Positions 13,363 through 30,310 of a stretch of DNA of 64,000 nt are shown in pieces (the stretch's first letter is position 1; every line of letters begins with the position of its first letter). The notes beneath the pieces were generated by a model. It saw nothing but the letters and a program-made list of their open reading frames with translations, was not told where the DNA came from and ran no database searches. Origin of the DNA: Bacilli bacterium. GTDB lineage: Bacteria > Bacillota_I > Bacilli_A > RF39 > UBA660. The stretch lies in contig JAFSEY010000001.1 in the NCBI GenBank assembly GCA_017435485.1, positions 17,197 to 81,196 of the forward strand. Reading direction: 5' to 3'. The position numbers and the translations under genes were made by a program.

Positions 13363-14103
13363 TTAAATATTAATTTTAGAAAGATTATATTCTTTAATTT
13401 TTTCTAGATATTCATCAGGCATATTTTGAAATAAATAATCCTCAAAATATTCAATCCAATTGTCTTTAAAAGAATAGTAATCTTTATCAAATGTTTCTAA
13501 TGAATTCCATCTTGTATTCATGTCCTCAGCATACCAATCATCATATTTATCAAGTTTATTTATGGCATCCTTAACATTTGAAAATGCATCTAATATTCCT
13601 AAAAATCTATCTTTTTTAGAATAATCACTTTTAGTTAAGAATTCTTGTAAATCTTCTAAATCTTCACTATAACCATTACAATCCCATTGCATTAAACCAC
13701 CATTTTCAACTTGATAATTAAAGTTACCAAACTTAACTGCAAGTTTTTCATAATCTGATAATTTAGATAAAAACTCATCTCTAGACATAGAATTGTTTTT
13801 CCATATATCATAAGATTGATCCATAATGAAAGACCAAAGACTATCAATATCTTTTAACACATCTTTTTTAACAACATCTTTTATAATTTTCTTTTTATCT
13901 TTTAAATAATCAGTCATAGAAAGAGAATCATTGTCGGCTATAAACTCATTAACCAACATTATATCCTCATTAGTAAATTCTAAATCATAATCGCTATCCA
14001 TTAAATCAGCACAAAACTTTGTTAATATTTTTGCATCAATGTTGGTAGATGTTTTATGTAGAAAGTAAACAACATTTTTTATATATTCTTTTTTATTATC
14101 TAT
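13363..14103 (-). CDS. DMP19/DUF4375-like acidic protein (possible DNA mimic)
   Basis: FNYQVENGGLMQW..NGY motif; highly acidic; GGAGG + 8 nt + ATA 14103 in frame. Confidence 0.6.
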   Translation of the reverse strand: MDNKKEYIKNVVYFLHKTSTNIDAKILTKFCADLMDSDYDLEFTNEDIMLVNEFIADNDSLSMTDYLKDKKKIIKDVVKKDVLKDIDSLWSFIMDQSYDIWKNNSMSRDEFLSKLSDYEKLAVKFGNFNYQVENGGLMQWDCNGYSEDLEDLQEFLTKSDYSKKDRFLGILDAFSNVKDAINKLDKYDDWYAEDMNTRWNSLETFDKDYYSFKDNWIEYFEDYLFQNMPDEYLEKIKEYNLSKINI

Positions 14104-14106
14104 AAA

Positions 14107-14262
14107 TTATTCCTCCTCAAAAAATTTATCCCATTGTTTTTTATCAAAATATCTACGATGGTATAAAATATATTCTTTATTAGCTTTATTAGGGAATACC
14201 ACTACATAGCGATATCCCCAAAATTTAATCCATTTCCATTTTAACTTTGACATATTTCTCAT
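14107..14262 (-). CDS. Small hypothetical protein (51 aa, MRNMSKLKWKW...)
   Basis: ATG overlaps the upstream stop; the end overlaps the next SD; not in the ORF track. Confidence 0.45.
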   Translation of the reverse strand: MRNMSKLKWKWIKFWGYRYVVVFPNKANKEYILYHRRYFDKKQWDKFFEEE

Positions 14263-15299
14263 ATACTAACTGATTCCTTATTTTCAGCATATAATCCAAA
14301 TTCACGATCATAAAACTTTTCAAAATTATTTATGATTCTTTTACTATAATTAACAATAGTATTTAATGAATCATCAATTTCTTTAAAGTCTTTTTCTTTA
14401 CTCCAAGCATACAAATAAGAAAGTGAATAATCACTTGGATTCATATCTAAATATTTAGATACAACATATGCAATTGACTCGGCTTCAGTTTCATATTGAT
14501 TACGATGCTCTTGGTAATCACGATGATTATTTTCAAGATGCTTATGTGCAAGTGCATGAGCATATTCATGAATTAATACTTTCATTTGCATTAAACTACC
14601 TAAACCTTTTCTAACAACAATAGTATGATTAGAGTGGTCACAATATCCTTTAGTGCCTCCCTCTAATTCTTTGAATTCAACTTTAAATCCGTCATTATAA
14701 ATAGTTTTAATAAAACAATCCATTATATCTTCGGCTTTTCTATCATTAATGACAGGGTTAAGTTCTGCATCAATAATATCCATAGGAATAGTAGTATCTT
14801 TTACATCAAATACATTTCCTAAACTAAATCCTGATAATTTTTGTTTATAGAATGTGATAGTGTCATCGTTTTTATCTTTATATTTTTTCTTTTCATCATC
14901 AGTTAATAAGAAGTATGGTTTATACTCATACTTCTCATCACCAATTTTAATTTTTGCTAAATTATAAAAATTAGGAATAAATATTTTTATTCCCTTACTA
15001 TCTTTATTTAACATATAACCCATATCTTTAATTGTTTTAAAAGCTGTCACATATTCAGCATCAGGTTTTTGCACCCATATTAACATTTGGTTATTAAATG
15101 AATAATTATTAAAGTTAATTATATTATCTAAAAACTTTTTGATATCAGATTCATCTTTGAATTTTAGAACTGCCTCTTTTTTTAAATCATACAAAATCTC
15201 TTTTAATTCACTTTCTATATTATCTTTTTCTTTTTCATCTTTGGCTTTGCAAAATTCAAAACCAAGTTCATTAATCTTTTTTAATTTTTCTTCAATTAT
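14259..15299 (-). CDS. ardC: ArdC-like ssDNA-binding protein with metallopeptidase-like domain
   Basis: FNNYSFNNQMLIWVQKPDA...GIKIFIP; HEYAH...ETEAESIAYVV; GGAGG + 8 nt + ATA 15299. Confidence 0.75.
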   Translation of the reverse strand: MIEEKLKKINELGFEFCKAKDEKEKDNIESELKEILYDLKKEAVLKFKDESDIKKFLDNIINFNNYSFNNQMLIWVQKPDAEYVTAFKTIKDMGYMLNKDSKGIKIFIPNFYNLAKIKIGDEKYEYKPYFLLTDDEKKKYKDKNDDTITFYKQKLSGFSLGNVFDVKDTTIPMDIIDAELNPVINDRKAEDIMDCFIKTIYNDGFKVEFKELEGGTKGYCDHSNHTIVVRKGLGSLMQMKVLIHEYAHALAHKHLENNHRDYQEHRNQYETEAESIAYVVSKYLDMNPSDYSLSYLYAWSKEKDFKEIDDSLNTIVNYSKRIINNFEKFYDREFGLYAENKESVSI

Positions 15300-15311
15300 A
15301 AATTATCCCTC

Positions 15312-15866
15312 CTAAATTCTAACATTATATAATTCATAAAAAGAATATGAATTATAATTTATATTACCCAATTTATCCATATCATTTGATATAGGTACAT
15401 CAAAAGAGCCAAAAGACCTATCAACGATATCATAAGCCAAATCTATCTTTTCATAATAGCCATCTTTATTTAATCTTGATAAAAGTATTTTATTTTCATA
15501 ATCAACACTATAATAAATATCAAACTCCCAATCATCAATATTAACCATATCATTTATATCTCTAACTACTTGATATATTAATTTTTCTATTGAATTATAA
15601 TCATTATTAGTTATAGCTTTAAATTTTTGTCTATTAACAAATAACTTAAAATCATCATCATAACTTTCCCAAAAACTACTTTTTGCTAAATAATTTTCAG
15701 CATAATTTCTTGCCACTTCAATTTCTTCATCAGTAAGGTCACTAACATTTTCATGCAATACGAAAGCATAATGATTTAATAAATCAATAGTCATACGATC
15801 AGTTCTATCCATAAAATATGTTTCAGAAACCAATTTTCTTATTTCATCATTTGTAAATTTTTCTAT
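15312..15866 (-). CDS. Hypothetical ICE protein
   Basis: GGAGG + 6 nt + ATA 15866 in frame with the track ORF. Confidence 0.7.
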   Translation of the reverse strand: MEKFTNDEIRKLVSETYFMDRTDRMTIDLLNHYAFVLHENVSDLTDEEIEVARNYAENYLAKSSFWESYDDDFKLFVNRQKFKAITNNDYNSIEKLIYQVVRDINDMVNIDDWEFDIYYSVDYENKILLSRLNKDGYYEKIDLAYDIVDRSFGSFDVPISNDMDKLGNINYNSYSFYELYNVRI

Positions 15867-15877
15867 AAAATTCCTCC

Positions 15878-16591
15878 TTATATTTTTATATCAATAATTT
15901 TTTCAGTTTTTAAATTATAAATTTTGTTAAAATCTACAATTAATTCTTTTTCGTTTCTTTCATCAAAATAGGCAATAATATCATCTTTCTTAATAGTAGC
16001 TTGTAATACATATCCATTATTATCAAATCTTTTTGCAAACCATAAAGCTGATTGATAATCATCAGTCCAAGACAAAGCTTTAGAATTATTTCTTTTATGA
16101 GTACCACGATAGATAGTTATTTCATCTGGTAGAGTTTTTAATTTTAATAATTCTGATTTAGTCATAATTGATTTTTTATCTGTATTCTTAAACATATCTA
16201 ATGATTCATCAACTGAAACATTTTTATCTGCATTAGGAAATTCGGTTAAATACCAAATCTCCTTTAAGCAGTTATTATAAGTTTTTTTAGAAATATAATC
16301 TTTATTAATTTTAAAAAATAATAATTGATATGGTCTATTAACCATCGGTAGTATATCTTCAAAAGATTTAGCCTCATTAATGTATTTTGTTTTTTGTTCA
16401 ATTAATTCAAAGTATTTATCTTTATCCTCAAAAATATCTATAAATCCTAATGAGCCATCTTTATTTTTAAATGGTGCAGGATTTTGTGCGATGAATGGAT
16501 GATAAATTATAAAAGGAAATTCTTTATTTGCAACAGGTTTAAAGTTAAGCATTATTCTTGCATTGTCTTTAATAATTTCTAAATTATCTAT
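15878..16591 (-). CDS. Hypothetical protein with ADP-ribosyltransferase-like R-S-E motifs
   Basis: TIYRG, ALSWT, RNEKELIV in the canonical order; GGAGG + 8 nt + ATA 16591. Confidence 0.5.
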   Translation of the reverse strand: MDNLEIIKDNARIMLNFKPVANKEFPFIIYHPFIAQNPAPFKNKDGSLGFIDIFEDKDKYFELIEQKTKYINEAKSFEDILPMVNRPYQLLFFKINKDYISKKTYNNCLKEIWYLTEFPNADKNVSVDESLDMFKNTDKKSIMTKSELLKLKTLPDEITIYRGTHKRNNSKALSWTDDYQSALWFAKRFDNNGYVLQATIKKDDIIAYFDERNEKELIVDFNKIYNLKTEKIIDIKI

Positions 16592-16603
16592 AAATTATTC
16601 CTC

Positions 16604-17296
16604 CTAAATCTTAATATCATTATGATTCATTTCTATATCATAAACTAATTCTTCATTAATAAATTTATTTAATTTTTCTTGCATATCTAACATTAGAGTT
16701 ACTTCGTTTTCTAAATTAGGTTTAGTTTCTTCAAAAGTTAAATGGTCTATATTCCCATAACCATGTTTATTATATCTATAACCAATTTTTCCATTTAAGA
16801 TAATCATGTCACAACTATATTGTTCATCTTCATCAAAAAAAGATGCTAATTCGTAATAATCCTCATAATCAAGATCACTAGCATCCAATTCAATTCTTCT
16901 TAAATCTTCCATACTTTTATAGGTATCAAATTTAAAATGTCTTTCATAATTTAAATCATCTTTAAATAAATACTTTATTTGTTTATAAACATGGTCAACT
17001 GCAGAATCATAATCATCACATTTAAAATATTTAGCCTTAGAGTATGCCTCGTCATCAAACATATTATTTGAATTAATGTTTTTATCATTACCAAGCACCA
17101 CCATAATATTATCACTATTTCTACATTCACAAGCCCAAACAATAAAGTCTTTATCATCTTTATGAATGGTTAAAACTAATCCTTGTTCACGATTATTATT
17201 AAACAATTCATAGTAACCATTTAATCTATTATTTCCAAGTTTATTTTCTAATGTTTCAAAAAACTTTTCACTAACCTGAATACTTCTTAATTTTAT
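16604..17296 (-). CDS. Hypothetical ICE protein
   Basis: Frame open to ATA 17296; start uncertain. Confidence 0.65.
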   Translation of the reverse strand: MKLRSIQVSEKFFETLENKLGNNRLNGYYELFNNNREQGLVLTIHKDDKDFIVWACECRNSDNIMVVLGNDKNINSNNMFDDEAYSKAKYFKCDDYDSAVDHVYKQIKYLFKDDLNYERHFKFDTYKSMEDLRRIELDASDLDYEDYYELASFFDEDEQYSCDMIILNGKIGYRYNKHGYGNIDHLTFEETKPNLENEVTLMLDMQEKLNKFINEELVYDIEMNHNDIKI

Positions 17297-17301
17297 AAAA
17301 C

Positions 17302-17553
17302 TTATATTTTAACCTCCATATCTATATTATCTTTTGGCTTTTCAATTATTTCAAAAGCGTCCTCACTTTCGATAAGAGCGAGAGTACGACCATCATCCCA
17401 AGTCATTTGAATTTGACCTGCATCATCAACATAGTCAACAGTCCCTAGTGTACCACAGGCAACACCATAATCATCAGCCATATGGTGCAATCTGATTCTT
17501 GTCCCTGTAGGGTATTTATTTTTTATTCTTTCAACTTGCTTTTCATTTAACAT
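17302..17553 (-). CDS. DUF4314 domain protein
   Basis: YPTGTRIRL..M.D...GTLGTVDYVDDAGQI..TWDDGRTLALI. Confidence 0.85.
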   Translation of the reverse strand: MLNEKQVERIKNKYPTGTRIRLHHMADDYGVACGTLGTVDYVDDAGQIQMTWDDGRTLALIESEDAFEIIEKPKDNIDMEVKI

Positions 17554-17565
17554 TTAATTCCTCCT

Positions 17566-19344
17566 TTATTCTAGTTCAACTTTATTCATATTATTAATTG
17601 TTTTATTTTTTCTAAATTCATCCAAATTAAAACACTCGATTTGATATTCTCTCGGAGTGTTTGGTAGATTAACAATTTTATATTTAATTGGGTATTTTGA
17701 AATAGGAACAATAGTAGCTTTAATAGGATGCATTCTTGTTCCCATAAATATTGCCTCACCAAATTGAAATCTCATCAATTCATCAGGCATCATTAACTCT
17801 CTACCCATAAGAGATTTATCATTTGAAATATTATAATCTAATTGTTCCAATCGGCTAGATGTAGAAACTCTTTCACTTGAAATTGTATATTTTCCCAAGC
17901 GAGATGAAATCTCACGAGCAGTCTCATTATCAGCTGTTAATAAGTATATCCAATTAGTACAATTCGACTTGATAGTTCCTGCTTGTTCTTTATAAGTTTC
18001 TTTTAATTGGTCAAAATCCTGTAATACTAAATAGAATCTTATATTTCTAGAACGAGCAACTTGTATTTTATGACTCATATTCATTGGTGGCATAGAACTA
18101 AATTCATCACAAACAAAATTAACTCTAATAGGCATCTTACCACTAGGAAGTGATTGAGCAGTATTAACTAGAGCTTGATAACATTGGTCAACAAAGAGTG
18201 TTGCAAGTTCATGTCTTGATTCTTTCTCATCAGGTATAATTAAAAATACTGCAGTTTTTTCCATACCAATACTATCTAATTCAAAATCAGTTCTACTTGT
18301 AAGATTTGCAATACCTGTATCACTAAATATTTTAATGACAGTTGCAAGTACAGAGAATAATGTTGCTCTTGTTTCACCTTTAGCAAAACTACCTGTAGCA
18401 TATGACATTTTGGCAAGATTACCAAAAGTTTTTTGTTGAAAATATAAATCCAACGAATTAAACCTATCAATTGTTTTAGCTCCATGTTCTACTAGCATAT
18501 TATAAATAGAAAATAAGTGAACTTGTTCTTCTTTAGGTGCATCCTCAATAATTGCATAACATAAAGCAGTTAAAACTGCATTAGCAGACTTTTCCCAATA
18601 CATATCTTTACTAGAAAGATTTTTTGTTAAAGATTTAGAAAAGTTTTCAATTAAGTCACCTGCAAGATCAATATTACCATCTTTATAATATTTATATGGC
18701 AAATGTAATGGATTCCATCCATCAGATGAAAGAGCATCTCTCAAGTTAATAACTTTAATTTTATATCCCTGTTTTTTAAGAAAATCAGAAGTATGAGAAT
18801 AAAGTTCACCCTTAACATCATTAACCACCATTGATTCACCTGCATAACCTAAATTAAAAATTAAAGGCATTATTTCACAAATAGTTTTACCACTACCTGT
18901 GGATCCGATGATTAATGTATGATCAAATGAATCAGAATAATAATATTTACCATCCATCATAGTGACAGGTATACCACCACTCTTTAGGGGAGAGCCAATA
19001 TCCCAAACCTTAAATTGTTTTTTGATTTCTTTTTTTGTAGCCCAACGAGAACTACCATATTCAAAACTACCATCTTCTTCAGGCATCTTTTTTAATTTTT
19101 GTAATTTTAATTTTAATTCTTTATCATACTTAAGAACAAACAACATTATTAATGATGCCATAAGAATAGTACCAAATAGTAGACTAATATCTTTTAATTG
19201 AAATAATGAGTGAATAATATTAATATCCCAAGATAGTTTAATATTATTTTTTATGATAGTAGTTAAGTTATAACAAACATTACAAGATAAAATAAATGCA
19301 CATATAGAAATAATTATATAATTAATTGTTTTCTTAATTAACAT
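17566..19344 (-). CDS. virD4: VirD4/TraG-like type IV coupling protein
   Basis: N-terminal TMs, YGSSRWA, GSTGSGKT Walker A, DVKGEL, DEFSSM, ARSRNI. Confidence 0.92.
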   Translation of the reverse strand: MLIKKTINYIIISICAFILSCNVCYNLTTIIKNNIKLSWDINIIHSLFQLKDISLLFGTILMASLIMLFVLKYDKELKLKLQKLKKMPEEDGSFEYGSSRWATKKEIKKQFKVWDIGSPLKSGGIPVTMMDGKYYYSDSFDHTLIIGSTGSGKTICEIMPLIFNLGYAGESMVVNDVKGELYSHTSDFLKKQGYKIKVINLRDALSSDGWNPLHLPYKYYKDGNIDLAGDLIENFSKSLTKNLSSKDMYWEKSANAVLTALCYAIIEDAPKEEQVHLFSIYNMLVEHGAKTIDRFNSLDLYFQQKTFGNLAKMSYATGSFAKGETRATLFSVLATVIKIFSDTGIANLTSRTDFELDSIGMEKTAVFLIIPDEKESRHELATLFVDQCYQALVNTAQSLPSGKMPIRVNFVCDEFSSMPPMNMSHKIQVARSRNIRFYLVLQDFDQLKETYKEQAGTIKSNCTNWIYLLTADNETAREISSRLGKYTISSERVSTSSRLEQLDYNISNDKSLMGRELMMPDELMRFQFGEAIFMGTRMHPIKATIVPISKYPIKYKIVNLPNTPREYQIECFNLDEFRKNKTINNMNKVELE

Positions 19345-19385
19345 CCCTCCAAACAAAAAGATTATCTTTTTATTGATAATCTTAC

Positions 19386-20477
19386 TTATTTATTAAATTT
19401 ATTTTTAAATTTTTTTATTAAATAATAAATTCCATATCCTATACCACCTAACATTGCAAAGGCAAGTATAGTAGAAATTGTATCTTCTGCTTTAGTATAT
19501 TTATGAATGACAATTTCATAATTTTGTTCAGTACCATCTTCGGCAGTTACTTTTATATTTAATGTATTATCACCAGTTTTTAGTTTATCAATTTCATCCA
19601 TTTCAACTTTTGCTTTTTCATTACTCAAAGTATAATCAACTGAAATACTAGTAGCAGATGAACTCACATAGACTGTCGCTTTATAATTACTAAATACAAC
19701 TTCTTCTTCATCAATTTTTACTTTAATTCCTGTATCAGAACTTAATATTATTTTTCTTTCAACATTAATTTTATAATTTTTTGTGCTACCATCTTCAGCT
19801 TTAACTTCTATAACAATTTCATTATTTCCTACTGATAGGTTAGAATTATTTTTTATTTCATATGTTGCTTTACTATTATTAGTTTCAACTTTAATATCTA
19901 ATTTTTTGTCAGTAGTTGAATAGCTCATATTTTCTTCAATTTTGATATTTTCCTCATTAATAATAATAGCTTTTAAAGTATTATCATTACTTTTTGTTTC
20001 TTCAGGTTTTGTTGTAGTTTGATTATTATTTGATGAATTGTTGCTAGAACTATTATTAGATGAACTACTGCTTGATGAATTGTTGCTAGAATTATTATTA
20101 GATGAGCTACCACTTGATGAATTGTTGCTAGAACTATTATTAGATGAGCTACCACTTGATGAATTGTTGCTAGAACTATCATTAGATGAACCACCACTTG
20201 ATGAATTGTCATTAGAATTATTGTTAGATGAACTATTACCTGATGAATTGTTATTAGAACTACATGGATCACTATAAATAGGATCTCCTGTCGCATAATA
20301 TTTTCCATCTTTTTCTTCTGCTACATGCCAATGATTATCACTACTATGTTGTCCATAAGTAATACCATTACAAGTTTTTATTGAAGCTTTTCTTAATTGT
20401 CCACTACTTGCATTTACCTCAATATTTCCAATTAAAAATATAGTTAATAATAAAATTACATATAAACTTTTCTTCAT
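19386..20477 (-). CDS. Membrane-anchored surface protein: His-rich N-domain, Ser/Asn linker, two cadherin-like beta-sandwich repeats
   Basis: Signal peptide, GQHSSDNHWH, repeated I.V.AEDG...Y.I, C-terminal TM. Confidence 0.7.
   Translation of the reverse strand: MKKSLYVILLLTIFLIGNIEVNASSGQLRKASIKTCNGITYGQHSSDNHWHVAEEKDGKYYATGDPIYSDPCSSNNNSSGNSSSNNNSNDNSSSGGSSNDSSSNNSSSGSSSNNSSSNNSSSGSSSNNNSSNNSSSSSSSNNSSSNNSSNNNQTTTKPEETKSNDNTLKAIIINEENIKIEENMSYSTTDKKLDIKVETNNSKATYEIKNNSNLSVGNNEIVIEVKAEDGSTKNYKINVERKIILSSDTGIKVKIDEEEVVFSNYKATVYVSSSATSISVDYTLSNEKAKVEMDEIDKLKTGDNTLNIKVTAEDGTEQNYEIVIHKYTKAEDTISTILAFAMLGGIGYGIYYLIKKFKNKFNK
20032..20261. repeat. 42-bp coding tandem repeat (~5.5 copies)
   Basis: GATGAATTGTTGCTAGAACTATTATTAGATGAGCTACCACTT-like units at 20032, 20074, 20116, 20158, 20200, 20242; encodes the Ser/Asn linker. 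Confidence 0.9.
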
Positions 20478-20486
20478 AAATACCAC

Positions 20487-20684
20487 CTAATCTTCAAACA
20501 CATTATTCATTAAATCTTGAATATGTTTTCTTCTTTCTTCCGTTTCTTTTTTGTCAATTTCTATTTTTATAACATCTCCCTCATTAGCATTAGGGATTAA
20601 TACTTTAGGTATATTAACGAATTGACCAATTGCAACTTCTACAACTGCATATTCGCCCTCGAATCTATCAATTATAACTTTCAT
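20487..20684 (-). CDS. DUF3006 protein
   Basis: MKVIIDRFEGEYAVVE...IP..LIP.A.EGDVI. Confidence 0.9.
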   Translation of the reverse strand: MKVIIDRFEGEYAVVEVAIGQFVNIPKVLIPNANEGDVIKIEIDKKETEERRKHIQDLMNNVFED

Positions 20685-20699
20685 ACTTACTCCTTACTT

Positions 20700-22052
20700 T
20701 TATCTTGACGAATTAATATTCAATGAATTTCCGTCCGTAGAAACAATAATTGTTCCATTTAAGTCTGTTCTATATATTTTAGCACCAGTATTAGACCATC
20801 GATCTAGAGTTATTTGATACGGATGATCATACTGATTGTTTGCTCCAACCATTATTATTACATATTTTGGATTTACTTTATTAACAAATGATTGTCCTGA
20901 TGAAGTGTCACTACCATGATGTCCTATTTTAATTACATCAGCAGACACATCAGAAGTAATATCATTTTCACTTTGTGTTTCAGCATCACCCATAAATAAG
21001 AACTTTCTATTACCATAAGTTATCTTTATTACTGCTGAATAATTATTTAAATCACTATAATCTCTATTCGGTGCAATAATGTTGATATTTAAGTTTCCAT
21101 TATTAATTATATTAACACCTGATTTTGCAGTAATAACTTTTAAACCCTTTTGAGAAATAGTATTTAACAAATTTTCATATGTTTTACTCGTCGAAACTGC
21201 TTTAGGCATATAGATATTTCCTATATTAAAACTATTTATAATATGTTCCATACCACCTATATGATCAGCATGGGGATGCGTTCCAACCAAATAATCAATT
21301 TGGGAATATCCAAGACTTGATATATAATTAGAAATCAATGTCCCTTTGGATGAGATTCCAGCATCAATTAACATTGTTTGTTGATTAGGTAATTCAATAA
21401 ATATTGAATCTCCTTGACCGACATCAATATAATGAACTTTCATTAAACTACTTTGAATCGAAGTATTATCATTATTATTTATAACTTCATTATTATTATC
21501 ATTTGGTTTTGAATTATCATTATTATTATTATCTTTGTTATCAGTAGATTCTTCTTGTTCTTGTTTTTTATCATCAGTTATATTTTCCAAATCTTCCTTT
21601 AACTCATCTTCAGTAAGTGTTGATTTTTCTTCTTCAGGTATAAAATCTGGATCATGTTCTTTATAAATTATTTCAGTTTGTGTGTAATCGTTATATCTTT
21701 CCCAATAATCATTAGAGTGAAGTAAAGAAACTAATTCGCTACTAGACATAACCACAAAAAAGATAATTATAAAACCAATTATATCAGACCATATTTTTTT
21801 CTTATTTAAAATTGGTATTTTATCTTTAATTTTAAAATCTGAAATAAATAACATTGGAATAAAAAATGATAAAGCTGTCAAAATATTTGATGTTTTAAAA
21901 ATAAATAAATCATAAATATCGGCTTGTACTTTTGGTACTTCACTAGCATATGAAATGATTACAATAAAACATAAAAAATAATATAAACAAGCAAGTATCT
22001 TCTTCCATGATTTATTCGTTCGAAACCCCACTAGTTTTTTAATATTTTTCAT
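20700..22052 (-). CDS. Membrane-anchored ComEC-type metallo-beta-lactamase-fold hydrolase (putative nuclease)
   Basis: IDVGQGDS, THPHADHIGG, GHHGS, YRTDLNGTI; three N-terminal TMs. Confidence 0.85.
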   Translation of the reverse strand: MKNIKKLVGFRTNKSWKKILACLYYFLCFIVIISYASEVPKVQADIYDLFIFKTSNILTALSFFIPMLFISDFKIKDKIPILNKKKIWSDIIGFIIIFFVVMSSSELVSLLHSNDYWERYNDYTQTEIIYKEHDPDFIPEEEKSTLTEDELKEDLENITDDKKQEQEESTDNKDNNNNDNSKPNDNNNEVINNNDNTSIQSSLMKVHYIDVGQGDSIFIELPNQQTMLIDAGISSKGTLISNYISSLGYSQIDYLVGTHPHADHIGGMEHIINSFNIGNIYMPKAVSTSKTYENLLNTISQKGLKVITAKSGVNIINNGNLNINIIAPNRDYSDLNNYSAVIKITYGNRKFLFMGDAETQSENDITSDVSADVIKIGHHGSDTSSGQSFVNKVNPKYVIIMVGANNQYDHPYQITLDRWSNTGAKIYRTDLNGTIIVSTDGNSLNINSSR

Positions 22053-22119
22053 AATATACATCCAATCAATAACTTTAAGTGTAGTTATCAATATAATTAT
22101 ATCACAATGTTGTAGGTTT

Positions 22120-22722
22120 TCATAGACCTATATCAAGATTATCTTTATTTTTTAATTGTTTTAATGAACAAGTATTATTTAATAATTCTTCTAGAAATAA
22201 ACCACCATTATACAATGTATTCATTTCAAAATTACTATTATTGTATGAATATGACATTTTTTCGAACGAATTAAGGTCAAGTTTGCGATCTTCATATTCA
22301 TTAAGTCTATCATTATTATTTAACATATTAATTAAAGAATCATTAACTAAAAAAGCCATATATGTTTTAGCTTTCTTTATTTCATCTTTATTAAACTGAT
22401 AGATAGTGGGATACTCATCAATATCCTTATTATATTGTTTTACAAACACACAATTATCTTTTGTGGCATTAACTGACTGAATAATTAAATCTTGTTTTAT
22501 ATCCAAATCATAATTTGCTTTAACAAAATTTTTTAATGAAAACATATTCATATCTAAATTAGAATCTAATAATTCTTTATCAATATCTAAATTACAATTA
22601 GCAAGAGCATAATCATATATATAATTTAATGTTTTAGTTTTAGCATCCATAGAATATTTGCCAACTAACATATCACTTTCAAAAGTATTGTTATCAACTC
22701 TTGTTATATCAACAACTTGCAT
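22120..22722 (-). CDS. Hypothetical ICE protein
   Basis: ORF coupled to the relaxase stop. Confidence 0.7.
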   Translation of the reverse strand: MQVVDITRVDNNTFESDMLVGKYSMDAKTKTLNYIYDYALANCNLDIDKELLDSNLDMNMFSLKNFVKANYDLDIKQDLIIQSVNATKDNCVFVKQYNKDIDEYPTIYQFNKDEIKKAKTYMAFLVNDSLINMLNNNDRLNEYEDRKLDLNSFEKMSYSYNNSNFEMNTLYNGGLFLEELLNNTCSLKQLKNKDNLDIGL

Positions 22723-24155
22723 TATCTATATTCCTCCAATTCATATTGCATTTCAGCAATGATTTGTTTTTCTTCTGCCTCTAACTCATACATCAAATGG
22801 TTTATAGCTTGATTAATAAATCTTTTATAATTAAGTTCTTTATAAAAATATTTATTTCTGAATTTATTATATCTATCATAATCATATCCTAATTTTTTTA
22901 ATGCATTGTAATATTCAGTAGAACTCATTTCATAATCAAGAGTAGAACACGAGCCAATAAGTGCATCTGCATCAAAATTATATTTAGAATTTTTTAACCA
23001 TCTTTGAAAAACTTTTTTTGTTTCATTATAGTTAAGACCTGCAACCATACATAACTTGTATAAATCTTTAGCAATTTTAATTTTAGTTTCATCTTTAGCA
23101 TAGTCACTACGACTTTTAAACTTTAACTCTTTAATATGTTTAGATAAAAAAGATTTTTCACGAGCCATCAAGTCCATAGCTTGATATTTTTTATAATTAG
23201 ATAAAATTTCATTACCAATTTTTGTATATAAACGATTAAGCTGATCGTTATAATATTTTTTACTTTTATTATCTTTAGTCATACCATAAAGAGAAGTTAA
23301 TTCTTTTTGATGTTCCTCTAATAACCTTAAATAATTAGCATAATTATATTTGACCGAATCATGACTTAATATAAAGTGTATAATATTATCTAATTCTTCT
23401 TTATAAGGTTTCATATTTTTTGAATTATATTGAAGTCTGCCTGTTTTTGGTAGGTTATCATAAAAAGAAAGTAATTGTTGATTCAATGTCTTTCTAAACT
23501 TATCACTATATAATTTTTGACCTTTAACTTTTGTTAATTCTTTTAATGATATACCACCTGTGATATTTGAAAATTCTTTGTCCCTTAATTCATAAAATTT
23601 TGTATTATCAATTAAATAATTACCAATATTACTTTTCATATTTTGAATAGCAAATTGTGGTATAAAACCTTTTGTAGCAGTTTTATTTTTTTCTATCAAA
23701 CTAATATGTAAGTGTGGGTTATCAGTATTACGATGCAAACTTGCATACCAAATAGAGTTATCTAACTTGAGTCCCATATCTACGATTAATGATGGCATTA
23801 TATGTTTAGTTAAATCATAATAATCAGCTTTAGTTATTAAACCATTTTTTATAGCAAAGTCAGGTGGGAAAGAGATGACCAAGTTCCAAACAAAACCTGT
23901 GTCATCTATTTTAGGTAGATCTTGTTTAGGATTTATATCACCATCTTGTCCCCAAACAAATGACTCGCATTTTTCATAAAGAAAAGAATCTTTATCAGCT
24001 AGAGCAAAATATTCATTCATTATGTTTTTATCATCTAAACTAGTGGCATCTGCTTTTTCTTTTTTAGAAACATAATCAACCCATTTTGAAATATGTTTAC
24101 TAGCAGTAAGAGAATGCTTATACCTAGTACGAATGATAATATTACTTTTACTCAT
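22722..24155 (-). CDS. Relaxase, MobL (MobP2)-like
   Basis: WVDYVSK (catalytic Tyr region), VWNLVISF, HUH motif SLHRNTDNPHLHI. Confidence 0.85.
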   Translation of the reverse strand: MSKSNIIIRTRYKHSLTASKHISKWVDYVSKKEKADATSLDDKNIMNEYFALADKDSFLYEKCESFVWGQDGDINPKQDLPKIDDTGFVWNLVISFPPDFAIKNGLITKADYYDLTKHIMPSLIVDMGLKLDNSIWYASLHRNTDNPHLHISLIEKNKTATKGFIPQFAIQNMKSNIGNYLIDNTKFYELRDKEFSNITGGISLKELTKVKGQKLYSDKFRKTLNQQLLSFYDNLPKTGRLQYNSKNMKPYKEELDNIIHFILSHDSVKYNYANYLRLLEEHQKELTSLYGMTKDNKSKKYYNDQLNRLYTKIGNEILSNYKKYQAMDLMAREKSFLSKHIKELKFKSRSDYAKDETKIKIAKDLYKLCMVAGLNYNETKKVFQRWLKNSKYNFDADALIGSCSTLDYEMSSTEYYNALKKLGYDYDRYNKFRNKYFYKELNYKRFINQAINHLMYELEAEEKQIIAEMQYELEEYR

Positions 24156-24570
24156 CTTCTAATTCTTTCTTTTTAGATGACATAGTTCTAATATCTTTAA
24201 TAATTAAATCTTGAGCCACATCAGTAATAGGATGATTTAAGAATGATACATTTAATTCATCTTTAGTTTGTGGAACTTTTAAATGTTGCATAAAGATATC
24301 TTGCTGTTTTAATAACCATCTAGTATTGAATTCAATTCTATTTAAAATTACTTATAAATGTTTTTGAAATGGCTCATAACTTCTTTTAAAAGATGTATCA
24401 AATAAATTTAAAAATTGTCCCTGACTATCATTAAGTTTATCAACTTGCATCTTATCCATAATAGCACTATACACATATTCAGATGTGTTCATTTTTAATT
24501 TATCTGCAACCACACTTATTTCTTTTTTTTCGTCTTCGGTTACTCGAATTGTTATTCTATCTGATTTCAT
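24148..24570 (-). pseudogene. MobC-like RHH relaxosome accessory gene with internal stop
   Basis: RITIRVTEDEK...MNTSEYV RHH motif; TAA at 24352-24354, then the same frame stays open 67 codons to a stop overlapping the relaxase ATG. Confidence 0.7.
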
Positions 24571-24755: not shown

Positions 24756-24829
24756 AAAATTTCACCTCCAAAAAAGGACACTAAAAATGTCCCAATAACT
24801 TTAAAACTTAATTTAATTTTTTAATACAA

Positions 24830-25060
24830 AAAAGCCACAAATCGTGTATGTGTTTTTAGCAGGATAACTGTGGCTGACAAACAACTACCCAGTGGGTAGT
24901 TTAGCCCAAAAATAAAGGGATTGTGAGAAATCCCTTTGTCATACATAAACCAATATGTCATACATTTGGACTAACATATTTTTAACTATTTCATATAGTA
25001 AATAGCCAAAAGTCTAACAAGTGTTATAACAAATGTTAAAACAATCGTTATAACAAAATA
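24830..25060. other. Candidate oriT region
   Basis: Upstream of the RHH-mobC-relaxase operon. IRs AACTACCC/GGGTAGTT (24883-24901), AAAGGGATT/AATCCCTTT (24914-24937) and AGCCACA/TGTGGCT; direct repeat TGTCATACAT (24937, 24956). Confidence 0.55.
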
Positions 25061-25142
25061 ACCAAAAAAGCCACATTCGTGAGTCCTTAATTTTTAATAA
25101 ATATAAAATATATAAACTCATAATGTGGACTTTTAAACAATT

Positions 25143-25364
25143 TTAGACAGGATAGAAATGATCATAAATTCCAAATCCTGTCATAAAAGGAACAAACAAT
25201 GTAGTTACTAATGCTTCAAACCAAGCAGGTGCATACATTGGCATATAGCCATTAATTGTTTCAGAGAAACCTATATCAGTATGTATATAAAACAAAAAAA
25301 CTAATATAGCGAAAACAATAAATGTAGGCACTACAATAGCAACGACTTCAAAAAACTTTTTCAA
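25143..25364 (-). CDS. Small 2-TM membrane protein
   Basis: SD AGGTGGTGA, TTG start, two hydrophobic helices. Confidence 0.6.
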   Translation of the reverse strand: MKKFFEVVAIVVPTFIVFAILVFLFYIHTDIGFSETINGYMPMYAPAWFEALVTTLFVPFMTGFGIYDHFYPV

Positions 25365-25409
25365 AAACTCACCACCTAACTTATAAATTGTTAGCGAACT
25401 GCTAATACT

Positions 25410-25452
25410 ATTATAGGTCTTTGTGTCATCTTATGTCAAGCAGACCTATAAT
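25410..25452. promoter_or_regulatory. Divergent promoter region with TTATAGGTCT/AGACCTATAA inverted repeat
   Basis: Minus-strand TTGACA (25434-39)-N18-TATAAT (25410-15); plus-strand TATAAT at 25447; the IR arms overlap both -10 boxes. Confidence 0.55.
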
Positions 25453-25483
25453 GTAAAATTATATATGAAAGGAAAGATCGGTA

Positions 25484-25735
25484 ATGAGTAAAAGTTCAAA
25501 AGGCATTTATAAAATACCTTGCCAAAAAGGTTATTACTTATTTAAATTAGAATCACTTCTTGCTACGATCGATAAAACTAAATATACTATAGCAAAAGAA
25601 TTGCCAACTGAATATAAGGTTATTAACAGATATGCTCATGGCGATTTAGAAAGATTTGATGCGAAAGTAATAGCAAGAATATGTGACCACTGCAATTGTA
25701 AAATGAGTGATATCATAGAGTATTATCCTAATTAA
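25484..25735 (+). CDS. Cro/C1-type (XRE, YozG-like) HTH regulator
   Basis: HTH plus ARIC..CNC..SDIIEY tail; only plus-strand gene in the ICE core. Confidence 0.8.
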   Translation: MSKSSKGIYKIPCQKGYYLFKLESLLATIDKTKYTIAKELPTEYKVINRYAHGDLERFDAKVIARICDHCNCKMSDIIEYYPN

Positions 25736-25752
25736 AATTTAGGGTAGTTTTT

Positions 25753-26313
25753 TTATTTCATTACTACAATCGGATCCATTAAATCTTCTTGTTTAAAACT
25801 TATTTTATTTTTAGAAATCATAAAGTGTAGATGAATACCTGTCGACCTACCTGTAGAGCCGATAGTTCCAATTTTATCTTTAGCTTTAACTTTATCCCCA
25901 ACATTAACTACAATAGAATCATCAGCCATATGTCCATACATAGTATATAATACTAAACCACCATAGTCATGTTCTATATAAACATAATTACCTAAACCTG
26001 ATTCACTATAACCAACTTCATATACAACACCATCAGCACTAGCAACAATAGAAGTTCCTGCAGGTGCTGATAAATCAATGCCACTATGAAAAGATATTTT
26101 ATTTAAATCAATTGGATCAATTCTAGTACCATAATTTGATGTTATGGTATATTTTATTTCTTCTTCAAATGGTGTAGTGAAAAAGGCAGTAGCAACTCCT
26201 TCTTCGCTACCACCTGAACTACTACAACATAATAAAACTATGAATAAAAAAAAGAATGGTAAACAAGCACATCCAATTTTCCATCCATATTTTTGTAAAA
26301 AATAATATTCCAA
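25753..26313 (-). CDS. M23 family peptidase (conjugative cell-wall hydrolase)
   Basis: HSGIDL, YGHM, GSTGRSTGIHLHF. Confidence 0.9.
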   Translation of the reverse strand: MEYYFLQKYGWKIGCACLPFFFLFIVLLCCSSSGGSEEGVATAFFTTPFEEEIKYTITSNYGTRIDPIDLNKISFHSGIDLSAPAGTSIVASADGVVYEVGYSESGLGNYVYIEHDYGGLVLYTMYGHMADDSIVVNVGDKVKAKDKIGTIGSTGRSTGIHLHFMISKNKISFKQEDLMDPIVVMK

Positions 26314-28638
26314 CTATTTGCCACCTGCAGAGCCAAAGAGTTCTTTTTCTTCCTCTCTCAAGTGGACTTGAATAGGAAGTCTAGTATCTTGACTAATAAT
26401 GAATAATCCCTGACCTTTAGATGCAGTAGTTAAAAATTGTTTTTCTGATTCACTTAAGTTCATTAATTTTTGAACTGCAGTTATTTCTTTTTGTCCCTGT
26501 GCCATAACCATTATATAAGCACTATTATCAATAATAACTTGTCCATAACGAGAAATATCATCAGCCACAAAATCTATCAGGTTTTGCGAAATTATACATA
26601 ATGAGCCATTTCTCTTACGGATTAATTTTGATGCTTTCTTTAGAAAATCGATACCCTGATGATTATTTGGATCAATGATTAAATGTGCCTCATCACAAAG
26701 TAAAATTACTTGTTCTGATTTGTTTCTACATATCTCATTCCAACACCAAGTCAGTATGTTAAAGAACTGACTTTTTAAAATGCTTTCATCTGAATCAATT
26801 AAACTATTTATATCTAATACAATAAAATCTGAATCTTTATCTACATTAATACTAGAATGCCCATTTAATATTTTAGCATCAGTAGTAGTGGCTCTTTTCA
26901 TTAAAGAGCAAATCTTATCAAGTGACTCGATAACATTTCGTGGCTCTTTATTTGATTTAGCTTCTTTTAAATTATGACATAACTTTTTATATAAGTCATC
27001 CATAATCGGATAGTCAGTAGGTTTTAATTTTGAAATGTCAGTAGTAAAGTCGATTCCTTTATCTTTATAAACTTCAATTAAAGCATCTTCAATTTTAGTT
27101 AATTCATAAGCACTAACATCTTGTAGATAATACTTTATAAATGTTCTAAAAGTTTGAAAATGTTTATTTAAATCATTACTAGATAACTTTTTATCATCAT
27201 CAGAATCATCAGCAGTTTTACGAACTTCTAATGGATTTATAATTCCTGCAAGACCTGTTCCTGCATCAATCCAAGAGCCACCAACTGACTCACACATTTC
27301 TTTTAATTCTCGTTCAGGATCAATAGCAATTATTTTTGTTCCTCTTGCCCAATTACCACGAACTATTTTCTTAATAAGGGTAGACTTGCCACTTCCACTC
27401 TTACCAATAATGACTGCATTAGAATTATTTCTTTTATTAGTTCGTTTCCATAAATCAAAGAAAACTAAACTACCAAGACCATCATTACCAAGAATGATAG
27501 AGTCACCATCATCTTGTAAATTTTGAAAGATGAATGGGAAAGTGGATGCAGTAGTAAGCATAGGTACATCAATACCAAATTGCTTTTCAAAATCAGTATA
27601 CATTGTAGGCAAACACATTTTTAAACTTCGTTCTTGCTCAAACATTAAATTAGTGCCATATAGACCATAAGATGTAAGAGTGTTTTTCAGTTCTTTTCTT
27701 GCTTTTTCCATTTCTTCTTGTGTTTCACCATATACTAAAAAGCAGACCGTCAATTTAGTAAACTTTTCATGTTCACGATCAATACGATTTACTAACTCTG
27801 TATAATCTTCCATTTGATTATGCAATAGTATTTGATCGTTATAGTCATTAACATTAATCATACGAGATTTAGTATCAGACATACTTTTCTTTAATGTTCT
27901 AGAAATCTCTGATGTATCCATAGGACTAATAGTCATAACCATACGAGTATTATTAACATTAGCAACAGCTCCGAGCCATCCAACATTAACATAAGATGGA
28001 TATGTTATCAAAGTTACTATACTCATATAAGTATCACCGAGAATTAGGTCTTTTTCGCCGATTTTAAGCCCATTTGGTGCGATTTTCTCTTTAAATGACC
28101 TAGTAATACCTGTGGCATCTTTCTTAAAGGAATCAAGCGAAACAACAGGATTTAAAATAATATAAAGTAAATCTCGCCATTCCTCACTAGAAATAATATT
28201 ACTAGAAAGTCCCATAGCTGATAAATCAACTATTAAATCATTTAATTTTTGTTTTAATAGAGTTTCATTTTCAGAACTTTCCTCAACGATTATATAAAAC
28301 TCACGATTAACAACTTGTCGTTTGTTATTTAAAGTATTTATATAATCTAAATCTTCTTCCAAGATTTTAATTTTTGATTTATTAGTTTCTTGTTTTATTT
28401 TAGTATTTAAAATATTTATATTATCATCTAATAATATAGGTTTATCTATACTAAATATTTTGATAGGATAGTCGATAGAATTTAAAACTTTCTTTAGCTC
28501 CATAACTTTTAATTTTTGTTCTTCATCAAATAATAAACAAAGATTAATAGAGCCAACTTTTATTCCACCAACAATACGATTATTATCCAAATAGACATAA
28601 TTATTCCATACATCCTGAAAAGGAATAAAATCTAACAT
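26314..28638 (-). CDS. virB4: VirB4-like conjugation ATPase
   Basis: GKSGSGKS Walker A, IDPERE, DEAH Walker B, RKRNGS. Confidence 0.92.
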   Translation of the reverse strand: MLDFIPFQDVWNNYVYLDNNRIVGGIKVGSINLCLLFDEEQKLKVMELKKVLNSIDYPIKIFSIDKPILLDDNINILNTKIKQETNKSKIKILEEDLDYINTLNNKRQVVNREFYIIVEESSENETLLKQKLNDLIVDLSAMGLSSNIISSEEWRDLLYIILNPVVSLDSFKKDATGITRSFKEKIAPNGLKIGEKDLILGDTYMSIVTLITYPSYVNVGWLGAVANVNNTRMVMTISPMDTSEISRTLKKSMSDTKSRMINVNDYNDQILLHNQMEDYTELVNRIDREHEKFTKLTVCFLVYGETQEEMEKARKELKNTLTSYGLYGTNLMFEQERSLKMCLPTMYTDFEKQFGIDVPMLTTASTFPFIFQNLQDDGDSIILGNDGLGSLVFFDLWKRTNKRNNSNAVIIGKSGSGKSTLIKKIVRGNWARGTKIIAIDPERELKEMCESVGGSWIDAGTGLAGIINPLEVRKTADDSDDDKKLSSNDLNKHFQTFRTFIKYYLQDVSAYELTKIEDALIEVYKDKGIDFTTDISKLKPTDYPIMDDLYKKLCHNLKEAKSNKEPRNVIESLDKICSLMKRATTTDAKILNGHSSINVDKDSDFIVLDINSLIDSDESILKSQFFNILTWCWNEICRNKSEQVILLCDEAHLIIDPNNHQGIDFLKKASKLIRKRNGSLCIISQNLIDFVADDISRYGQVIIDNSAYIMVMAQGQKEITAVQKLMNLSESEKQFLTTASKGQGLFIISQDTRLPIQVHLREEEKELFGSAGGK

Positions 28639-28675
28639 TGTTTTAGGAACTTTTTTTACTTTTTGTTTTTTCTCT

Positions 28676-28936
28676 TTAGTCGTTAAATGTCCCTCCTAAT
28701 AATGAAATAATTTTATCCACATCTCTTGTTGATAAATCTTTTTTGTTTTCTAAATTGTTTATATCGTTATAGGCAATAGCAAAATTAATTAAATGTCTAA
28801 CATATTCTGACATTGTAATTTTTTGTTTATAAGCAATTTTTCTTAATTTTTCTTTTGTTTTTTTGTTGATACATAATTCTATACTAGTATCATATAATTT
28901 TAATCTTTTATTATTTATACACATCCGTCCTTTCAC
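28676..28936 (-). CDS. Small RHH-like protein
   Basis: IELCINKKTKEKLRKIA....TMSEYVRHLI. Confidence 0.5.
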   Translation of the reverse strand: MKGRMCINNKRLKLYDTSIELCINKKTKEKLRKIAYKQKITMSEYVRHLINFAIAYNDINNLENKKDLSTRDVDKIISLLGGTFND

Positions 28937-29267
28937 TCAAATGTTTTTTAACACCATAGGAATCAAACTCTCTTAATTTTCCCATATTTAATTTAGCAAT
29001 AGGAACTTCAATATAGTTATAAAATCCCATACCTGTTATTTCTCTAATAATTCTACTTTTTTTAAGTACATGAATAAATCCATTTTTTAAAATAAATGGA
29101 TCTAAAAAAACCTTACCATCATCTAGGTAGGCATCTTCTAAATTTAAAGTTATATCATGACTTTCATTTTTACTTTCATATTTAAGTCTAATTCTACCAT
29201 TATGGTATGTATAAACTCCAATATTATATTGTTTACCATTAAATTTAACTTTTTTTCTTATAATCAT
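28911..29267 (-). CDS. DUF4313-like protein
   Basis: ITLNL..VFLD...LNMGKLREFD..G; resembles 29912..30310. Confidence 0.45.
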   Translation of the reverse strand: MIIRKKVKFNGKQYNIGVYTYHNGRIRLKYESKNESHDITLNLEDAYLDDGKVFLDPFILKNGFIHVLKKSRIIREITGMGFYNYIEVPIAKLNMGKLREFDSYGVKKHLSERTDVYK

Positions 29268-29273
29268 ACCTCC

Positions 29274-29894
29274 TTATATTTTAATATTTTTTTCAACACA
29301 AACTTCATTAATTTGTTTTGAATAGCTGTCAGTAATAAAATGTTTTAATTCTATATCAGACATTAAAGTTGCATTATCATTAATTGATTTAATATTCTTT
29401 TTACAAATAGAAGAAATTTTATTCCATTCAGGATCTGAATTAAAATCTTTTTTATCCCATCTAATTCCAATGTTCCATTGCATATATTCATGTGGATTTA
29501 AAATATTTAATTCACTATCAGTAAAGCAATATTTAATTTCCCCTGAACTTTGGTCACAATCAACAAACAATTTTCCATCATTATTTTCTTGTTCTAAAAA
29601 CATATGTTGATTCATATCATCTTTATTATAAAAATATGAGTCTTTAAAATCCTCTAATATGTTATAACTCAATTGAATATCTTTCATATCATAATTAACA
29701 TCAAAAGTTCTACTGATTTTTTCTATTAAATCATCACGAAAAGAATATTCGATATTTCTTTTTATATATTCGATTCCATATCTTGCTCGAGAAATCATTC
29801 TTTCGCCATAGTTCCAAGAATAATATTTAGCAAGTAAATGAGTATTATTATTTTTATCTTTAAGTCTAATATATATTTGACTTCGTTGACCTAT
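29274..29894 (-). CDS. Hypothetical ICE protein, probable ATA start
   Basis: Frame open to ATA 29894 after AAAGGA. Confidence 0.65.
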   Translation of the reverse strand: MGQRSQIYIRLKDKNNNTHLLAKYYSWNYGERMISRARYGIEYIKRNIEYSFRDDLIEKISRTFDVNYDMKDIQLSYNILEDFKDSYFYNKDDMNQHMFLEQENNDGKLFVDCDQSSGEIKYCFTDSELNILNPHEYMQWNIGIRWDKKDFNSDPEWNKISSICKKNIKSINDNATLMSDIELKHFITDSYSKQINEVCVEKNIKI

Positions 29895-29911
29895 AATATC
29901 ACAATCCTTTC

Positions 29912-30310
29912 TTATATTTTAGGAATATAATGTGGCTCATAATTAAATGATTTATAATAATTATCTAAACCAACAGGATCATATTCCTTTAATTTTTTCA
30001 TATCAAATGATACAAAGTCATATGTACCATAATTGTATTTTTCTTCACAAATAACTTCTTTAATAATTCCTGCATCTAATAATGCTTTTTCTAATCCACA
30101 GGATTTTGCTATATCTGAAATATGAGCTTCATCTTTATTCAAAGGGAATGTATTTGATAAATTTATAGTTAAATCACAATACAACTCATCTTCAGTTTCA
30201 CAAAGTATAGCAAGTCGATTATTATTTGCATATTGTGTGATAGTTAAAAACAAATTATTATTTTTAAATTTAAATGTTTTTCTATCTAGTTTTATTTCTT
30301 TTTTACTCAA
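29912..30310 (-). CDS. DUF4313-like protein
   Basis: YANNNRLAI...DLTINL...FD..KLKEYDPVG; GGAGG before TTG 30310. Confidence 0.6.
   Translation of the reverse strand: MSKKEIKLDRKTFKFKNNNLFLTITQYANNNRLAILCETEDELYCDLTINLSNTFPLNKDEAHISDIAKSCGLEKALLDAGIIKEVICEEKYNYGTYDFVSFDMKKLKEYDPVGLDNYYKSFNYEPHYIPKI

Follow-up and report, generated by a model that had tools for sequence, protein, structure and literature searches.

Why should unrelated proteins encoded by a single mobile element end in the same few residues? The question is raised by an integrative conjugative element (ICE) on contig JAFSEY010000001.1 of a Bacilli bacterium (assembly GCA_017435485.1), within the 64,000-nucleotide stretch from 17,197 to 81,196 of the forward strand, hereafter the window. 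The ICE occupies ~11.4–39 kb of the window, on the minus strand. The GC content of the window is 26–27%, and the host genome, which is 94% complete, amounts to 1.09 Mb in 14 contigs. A preliminary description of the window listed ten C-termini from this element and proposed that most of them share an [IV]-x-I tail that might act as a signal for a type IV secretion system (T4SS). All ten are present, each at the low, stop-codon end of a minus-strand gene. Seven of them (SKINI, ESVSI, YNVRI, IDIKI, NDIKI, MEVKI and KNIKI) conform to the proposed motif; an eighth, YIPKI, has Pro at −3 and does not. The two that had been offered as looser members, LDIGL (22120) and EKIMV (the integrase, 11374), match only a hydrophobic-x-hydrophobic pattern, and the integrase is not to be counted. 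In what follows, a strict tail is [IV]-x-I ending at the last residue, and a loose tail is hydrophobic-x-hydrophobic in the same position.

Strict tails end 7 of the 38 open reading frames (ORFs) of the window ICE and 10 of the 1074 in the rest of the genome (Fisher p=5e-7), the host set being the ORFs of at least 70 codons outside the ICE. The preliminary description had suggested comparing C-termini of related ICEs with those of the host. A scan with the type IV coupling protein (T4CP) gave 44 related loci (L001–L044, 68–87% identity), recovered from metagenome-assembled genomes of the gut that carry the labels Bacilli, Tenericutes or “Mycoplasma sp. CAG:472” and are RF39-type bacteria. After removal of redundancy these ICE loci hold 642 ORFs, 124 of which (19.3%) carry a strict tail, compared with 0.9% in the host (p=2e-44), where the rate expected from position-specific composition is ~1.1%. 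The enrichment is confined to the last-residue register: at offsets −2 to −12 the motif occurs in 0.6–2.3% of ORFs, as in the host. Across the 124 tails, position −5 is mostly K, E or N; −4 is D (38), N (30), K (18), G (11) or S (10); −3 is I (113) or V (11); −2 is K, N, S, G, D or E; and −1 is I, with Arg rare. The consensus is [D/N/K/G]-[I>V]-x-I-COOH, with x hydrophilic.

One explanation for such a pattern would be that AT-rich DNA produces it by chance, or that the bearers have a common ancestor, and Ile and Lys do each account for ~10% of residues in this genome. The difference between host and ICE loci rules out chance of this kind, and BLAST sorts the bearers into at least 12 unrelated clusters; we therefore give this explanation next to no probability. 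Counting the bare nucleotide pattern in all frames was uninformative in such AT-rich DNA, since most of the 2055 matches are ends of random short ORFs.

The distribution of the tail among families, defined as BLAST clusters of all ORFs from the related loci, is highly selective. Genes downstream of the T4CP gene repeatedly end in KDIKI, KNINI, EDIGI, IDIDI, ENISI and similar sequences, and bearer families that are missing from the window carry the tail in 10/10, 7/7, 6/6 and 9/14 members, with one Imm51-like and one DUF7659 family among them. The statement of the preliminary description that the T4SS machinery lacks the tail was borne out family by family: strict tails were found in none of the 44 T4CPs, 25 VirB4 proteins, 27 M23 peptidases or 12 PrgI proteins, nor in the MobL relaxases (0/29), the NikA-like proteins (0/29), the helix-turn-helix (HTH)-domain, XRE-like family fam7 (0/27) or fam13 (0/16). 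Several components of the machinery have characteristic ends of their own, K[IV][ED]L[EV] in the T4CP (KIELE, KVELE, KVDLV; 17566–17580 in the window), acidic ELDNE or ELEDE in the NikA-like protein, and NAGGR or SAGGK in VirB4, and it is possible from their sequences that these are interaction tails of the machinery itself. The bearers are for the most part small accessory proteins of one family of MobL-relaxase/VirD4-type ICEs. Transmembrane-like segments are present in only 3 of the 124 bearers but in 192 of the 518 other ICE ORFs (p=6e-18). The sole clear membrane bearer is a polytopic protein with ~7 such segments that ends ...EDIGI (L012:13782–14528, and also in L013). In the integrase family (fam11) the tail is strict in 6/21 members and loose in 11/21. 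Lambda Int also ends ...KIEIK, in a strand that packs on the neighboring protomer. By analogy, the loose tail of the integrase is probably an intrinsic C-terminal strand of tyrosine recombinases and not an ICE tag.

Six of the seven strict-tail genes of the window are consecutive, in a run that starts 12 nucleotides (nt) after the T4CP stop codon; all of the genes described here are on the minus strand, and where a putative ATA start codon (discussed below) is given, the length is counted from it. The DUF4314 protein (17302..17553; 83 aa; PF14192, E=2.7e-24) ends ...MEVKI, and its tail codons double as GGAGG and ATA start for the next gene; in its family tails are strict in 35/44 members and loose in 40/44. 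That next gene (16604..17305; ATA 17303–17305, overlapping the stop codon of the upstream gene) encodes a 233-aa protein that ends ...NDIKI, from a family (fam2) with strict tails in 21/43 members and loose tails in 36/43. It is followed by a 237-aa protein (15878..16591; ATA 16589–16591; ...IDIKI; family fam24, strict in 6/6) and a 184-aa protein (15312..15866; ATA 15864–15866; ...YNVRI; family fam34, strict in 3/3), and these three proteins have no assigned function. The 346-aa protein encoded at 14259..15299 (ATA 15297–15299) combines an ArdC-N domain with a zincin/M78-like metallopeptidase and ends ...ESVSI. Its orthologues end in VSI, ISI, MSI, LKI, LKM, ISM, INI or IAI behind a linker of variable length, and 20/22 members of the family have the loose pattern. 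The last gene of the run (13363..14103; 246 aa from the ATA at 14101–14103) encodes a DMP19-like protein that ends ...SKINI; its PF14300 match (E=3.5e-4) is below the cut-off, and its family (fam19) has strict tails in 5/8 members in related loci. Between these two genes, a 51-codon ORF (14107–14262) ends ...FFEEE and overlaps the stop codon of the ArdC-like gene by ATGA; it has the junction with an ATA start and lacks the Ile tail, its last codons, GAG GAG GAA TAA, being the Shine-Dalgarno (SD) sequence for the ATA start of the DMP19-like gene.

The seventh strict-tail gene lies apart from this run, at 29274..29915, and encodes a protein without assigned function that ends ...KNIKI and has 213 aa (ATA 29913–29915) or 206 aa (ATA 29892–29894). 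Its neighbor, a DUF4313 protein (29912..30325; PF14190, 1.3e-10), is the one that ends ...YIPKI, outside [IV]-x-I, and only 6/37 members of its family (fam3) have strict tails. The protein with the loose end ...LDIGL (22120..22722; 200 aa) has no assigned function and is encoded just downstream of the relaxase gene. In its family (fam12) tails are strict in 11/16 members, mostly as GGI-x-I, and in several related loci the fam12 gene lies just upstream of the T4CP gene, with tail codons that contain the SD and the overlapping ATA start of the T4CP gene (read directly in L009).

Six genes of the window have 14–40 open codons upstream of the first ATG or TTG, beginning right after a GGAGG, with an in-frame ATA 6–9 nt behind it. 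Given ATA starts, an ORF call based on ATG or TTG makes five or six of the tail genes too short. In the ArdC-like protein, the ATA start adds 45 residues that AlphaFold2 models as confident helices and that restore the start of the ArdC-N domain, and the homologous start codon is ATA, TTG or CTG in orthologues. Within ICE loci, an ATA that lies 4–10 nt behind a GGAGG and opens at least 70 codons accounts for 145 of 363 such sites; the same count over the whole host genome is 20/248, and 5 of those 20 lie in the window ICE. A cruder count, of the first start preceded by an SD, finds ATA in 41% of tail genes, 19% of the remaining ICE ORFs and 8% of ORFs in the host. From these sequence patterns, many ICE accessory genes thus appear to start at ATA. 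In Staphylococcus aureus, AUA and AUU starts preceded by extended SDs reach 10–30% of AUG efficiency and are rare (PMC13009471). Given that the weak ATA starts are placed in a run directly behind stop codons, the arrangement suggests obligatory translational coupling to the upstream genes. Linked ATA starts would represent an unusual, and testable, form of translational control on a mobile element.

The preliminary description overlooked that most tails abut the SD and the ATA start of the next gene. This raised a nucleotide-level explanation that had to be tested, in which the last codons are a by-product of a stereotyped junction (an A/T-rich stretch, a stop codon, GGAGG, 6–9 nt and ATA) that serves translational coupling and re-initiation, or that acts as a recombination joint for the exchange of cassettes. 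The stop codon mostly overlaps or directly precedes the GGAGG (TAG GAGG, TAA GGAGG), with the next gene starting 6–9 nt further on, at ATA. An SD starts within 3 nt of the stop codon for 72 of the 124 tails (58%), compared with 12% of the remaining ICE ORFs and 10% of ORFs in the host. Moreover, the junctions are alike over ~37 nt, the tail codons of DUF4314 and fam12 themselves hold an SD and an overlapping ATA start, and the GGMxLG end seen in Clostridial relatives is clearly the SD and TTG start of an overlapping gene. However, 54 of 131 tails (~40%) have no SD within 3 nt, and what comes after them instead is an ATGA overlap, a hairpin or a long gap. Among the 104 host genes in which an SD lies within 3 nt of the stop codon, just one has the tail. 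Together, these two observations rule out a generic constraint from a downstream SD.

The codons themselves argue in the same direction. Within families, ATA and ATT each make up roughly half of the Ile codons at −1 and −3 (18 and 17, respectively, at −1 of DUF4314), where overall Ile codon use in the loci is 52% ATT and 41% ATA, and the exceptions at these positions are other hydrophobic codons, TTA, CTT, GTT, ATG and TTT, for Leu, Val, Met and Phe. At −2, no fewer than 20 codons are used, and tails end in any of the three stop codons. The class of amino acid is thus kept while wobble positions and stops vary freely, as the preliminary description had argued from the mixed codons of the window. 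The Ile-x-Ile register is fixed to the C-terminus, and stays unchanged whether the SD lies inside the tail codons (DUF4314 and the family of the 22120 gene) or after the stop codon (the other families). In alignments of the ArdC-like and DUF4314 proteins, the tail is kept behind linkers that differ in both length and sequence. AlphaFold2 models give the DUF4314 protein a mean predicted local distance difference test (pLDDT) score of 91, with >90 over the domain at residues 1–72 and <50 at residues 80–83; for the ArdC-like protein the mean is 86, and the last 10 residues score <50. On these models, the tail is expected to be a free, flexible, disordered C-terminal end. Because codons drift while the hydrophobic class is kept, the linker is variable and the bearers are almost all soluble, selection very probably acts on the tail as a peptide. 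The nucleotide by-product explanation is largely refuted, and we consider it very unlikely to account for the tail.

The tail is not a property of the domain families that carry it, nor of AT-rich DNA. It was not found on DUF4314 homologues or their neighbors in 12 other Bacilli genomes (31–42% GC), and among distant DUF4314 representatives, retrieved with HMMER, it is present in 5/150, all from AT-rich sources. DUF4314 loci on viral contigs, three of them at 29–32% GC, yielded one strict tail in ~430 ORFs, and no relatives of the ArdC-like protein were found on viral contigs. The T4CP homologue search extended only to ≥72% identity, and the DUF4314 protein search, which returned only close relatives, was supplemented for that reason by HMMER. 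Since DUF4314 homologues elsewhere, including those on AT-rich viral contigs, are mostly without the tail, it belongs to this ICE lineage, or possibly to the host lineage. A different C-terminal pattern is seen among the distant, higher-GC DUF4314 proteins, which often end in MGGM or GGMx[LFI]G: 16/150 have GG[MILF] among their last 8 residues, compared with a background of 0.17% (~60-fold over internal windows). On Clostridia-type contigs of 42–55% GC (L050:296 and 1636; L051:3822; L052:10732), multidomain DUF4314 proteins and their neighbors end in MGGM, GGMxLG or M-x-M. These ends were considered as a general version of the tag and rejected: at the three loci that were read, the GG codons are an SD, and an overlapping gene has its TTG start within the tail. 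The Clostridial GGM variant may well be a junction effect.

What, then, would read the tail? From an exposed hydrophobic-x-hydrophobic-COOH end shared by unrelated proteins, we infer one shared reader. In the reading that we favor, at slightly less than an even chance, the tail marks its bearers for docking on, or export through, the T4CP/T4SS of the ICE. A groove on the common partner would accommodate the terminal carboxylate and both Ile side chains; this partner would most likely be the T4CP of the ICE itself, at the entrance to the T4SS, where the tag would dock the set of bearers and probably send them into the recipient with the DNA. In the donor, synthesis of the tagged proteins, whose genes follow the T4CP gene in a packed run, would probably be tied to translation of the T4CP operon by the weak ATA starts, which lie 6–9 nt past a strong GGAGG that adjoins the preceding stop codon or overlaps it.

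This reading is ranked first for several reasons. The tag is confined to the ICE and absent from both the machinery and the HTH-domain family. The bearers are of kinds thought to act in the recipient: they include ArdC-N with a metallopeptidase, DMP19-like (DNA-mimic-like), DUF4314 and Imm51-like proteins, as well as modules of “polyvalent” proteins, and several of them are of anti-defense type. For ArdC and the TraC primase, transfer of the protein itself in conjugation has been reported (PMC5512222). Conjugative T4SSs are known to move many proteins, dozens in all, by C-terminal or internal signals (PMC11288057, PMC8406263). Finally, the genes extend the T4CP operon tightly in the donor, a cell with no obvious use for anti-restriction proteins.

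Several points weigh against the T4CP/T4SS reading. The MobL relaxase, a certain T4SS substrate, is never tailed; known C-terminal signals for T4SSs are longer and charge-based, not four hydrophobic residues; one bearer is a polytopic membrane protein; host ClpP, Lon or a Lon-PDZ protease could equally read a non-polar C-terminus; and, with 58% of tails abutting an SD, some constraint at the level of the junction is not fully separable from the peptide signal. The partner, too, is a guess from sequence. Small elements with Mob_Pre (MOBV) relaxases, which are present in 103/201 genomes of the RF39 order, might have offered an independent view. Approximately 22 of 30 of these relaxases (L068–L097) have tail-like ends, mostly ...DDFE[LMI]SL, ...DISI, ...DFDI or ...DLEL, in which an acidic stretch is followed by hydrophobic-x-hydrophobic, and this is suggestive of what might be expected if hitch-hikers had copied the tag. 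However, the MOBV tails come from a single protein family and have counterparts in 2 of 6 controls taken from other low-GC Bacilli, such that they provide no independent support.

A quite different reader would be a host protease. If ClpXP, Lon, FtsH or Lon-PDZ recognized the non-polar C-terminus, the tail would be a degron and the accessory proteins would be short-lived, with transient action. The tail is exposed, disordered and non-polar, as are ssrA-type degrons at their C-terminus; genes for ClpP, Lon and a PDZ-Lon protein are present in the host; the weak ATA starts on the tail genes would likewise keep levels low; and the one membrane bearer suits FtsH better than export. The tail nevertheless bears no likeness to the tag of the host transfer-messenger RNA (tmRNA), DKAEYSFAPAFA, which ends ...FAPAFA. 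The host proteome is not depleted of the motif, given the observed and expected rates above; the HTH-domain family fam7 and fam13, which would be expected to be unstable, lack the tail; and DUF4314 homologues on AT-rich viral contigs, the hosts of which are not identified, do so as well. On balance, a degron is unlikely. The tmRNA lies outside the window, at C2:22672–23029, and its tag resembles the ...YAFA-type tags of Mollicutes; the genome has both ClpP and Lon, and the ClpP match contains one in-frame TAA.

It is also conceivable, but quite unlikely, that the common partner is something other than the secretion channel: a hub, chaperone or relaxosome protein encoded by the ICE, or a PDZ-like domain of the host, with the tail serving co-localization, inhibition until transfer, or assembly. 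The tail-less relaxase is in keeping with such a partner, and conserved ICE families without assigned function that were counted as tail-less (fam3, fam9, fam16) could include the receptor. In form, the tail is a classic class II PDZ-type ligand, hydrophobic-x-hydrophobic at a free C-terminus, and it resembles motifs that act by beta-strand addition, such as the I-x-I/V motif near the flexible C-terminus of small heat-shock proteins (sHSPs), which adds as a beta-strand and docks in a hydrophobic groove. DegS, likewise, is activated by the Y-x-F-COOH ends of outer-membrane proteins through beta-strand addition, for which the free carboxylate is needed. The five PDZ_2 matches are all in host genes outside the ICE, apparently ordinary envelope proteases of types that are usually extracytoplasmic, and the ICE encodes none. 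The alpha-crystallin/Hsp20 domain required for docking of the sHSP kind is absent, with no PF00011 match in the 94%-complete genome and a control search positive in 12/14 genomes, and docking on an sHSP was rejected for that reason. No receptor stands out among the candidates.

How would a tag for the T4CP/T4SS compare with signals already described? No description of such a C-terminal motif was found in the literature searched. The VirB/VirD4 substrates of Agrobacterium, VirE2, VirE3, VirF and VirD2, carry a C-terminal transport signal (Vergunst et al. 2000, as cited in PMC11288057). Like the ICE tail, this signal is C-terminal, unstructured and common to unrelated proteins, which in that case are exported by a conjugation-type T4SS with its coupling protein. 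The VirB/VirD4 signal, however, spans ~20–50 residues, is Arg-rich and positively charged, and is shared by the relaxase, whereas the ICE tail, as a candidate signal, consists of 4–5 residues, hydrophobic-x-hydrophobic after Asp or Asn, and excludes the relaxase. Thus, the C-terminal location on soluble proteins is common to the two, and the Arg-rich, net positive character and the sharing with the relaxase are not. A second parallel is the Legionella Dot/Icm system, in which a hydrophobic residue at −3 of RalF matters (Nagai et al. 2005, as cited in PMC11288057). The signal there is found on many unrelated substrates and also includes a Glu-rich E-block; the ICE tail is likewise hydrophobic at −3, and acidic residues are common at −4, −6 and −8, without an E-block. 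Dot/Icm, however, serves a Gram-negative pathogen as a type IVB effector system, and its signal is loose and statistical, whereas the ICE consensus is crisp and belongs to a system of Gram-positive type. Similar in cargo are the “conjutome” of F/pED208, TraC of RP4 and ArdC of pSa, where establishment and anti-restriction proteins, including those of ArdC type, travel with the DNA and C-terminal signals contribute (PMC8406263, PMC11288057, PMC5512222); these are Gram-negative plasmids, for which no consensus motif has been defined. As three- to four-residue terminal tags on unrelated cargo, PTS1 (SKL-COOH) and KDEL offer an analogy only, since they operate in eukaryotes with different machinery.

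A stronger version of the T4CP/T4SS reading can be stated, which we find doubtful. Here, Asp/Asn-Ile-x-Ile-COOH would be a four-residue address label with the logic of PTS1 or KDEL, defining all proteins handed to the T4CP and injected; its clients would be made only by re-initiation at weak ATA starts coupled to the T4CP operon, fixing the stoichiometry of client to channel; and the tail would be one lineage-specific dialect of a general, undescribed tagging system in Firmicutes conjugation. Conjugation of Gram-positive type has no known sequence rule for the proteins transferred, so the transferred proteome is not predictable from genomes. If the tail is a tag for transfer, candidate ICE cargo could be listed from sequence, by a crisp motif on a dozen unrelated families from at least 40 elements, and that cargo would include many proteins without assigned function that are likely anti-defense or establishment factors. 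Should it prove to be a degron, or to direct docking on a different hub, it would nevertheless give the accessory proteins of ICEs in poorly studied, uncultured gut bacteria a regulatory handle in common, and a new one.

The remainder of the element is laid out as follows, with the genes again on the minus strand. The tyrosine integrase (11374..12606) ends in the loose ...EKIMV, and a small-protein gene of the fam13 family lies beside it (13011–13319). Of the tail-less machinery, the VirD4/TraG-family T4CP is encoded at 17566..19356 (PF02534, 1e-59; also PF12696 and PF10412), the MobL-family relaxase at 22722..24155 (PF18555, 8e-30), the NikA-like protein at 24352–24570 and the VirB4-like T4SS ATPase at 26314..28638. 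Other genes of the ICE in the window encode PrgI-like and TrbL-like proteins, an M23 peptidase, a sortase, a thioester/SpaA adhesin and a DNA methylase. A long direct repeat that might mark att sites or the ends of the ICE was sought, and none was convincing. With no oriT located, an argument from leading and lagging regions was set aside. Between the relaxase and T4CP genes (20487–22091) are genes for a DUF3006 protein and a 463-aa protein with a metallo-beta-lactamase fold. Directly upstream of the T4CP gene, a gene with cadherin-like domains (19386–20486) contains a 42-nt (14-codon) repeat in five tandem copies (19988–20262).

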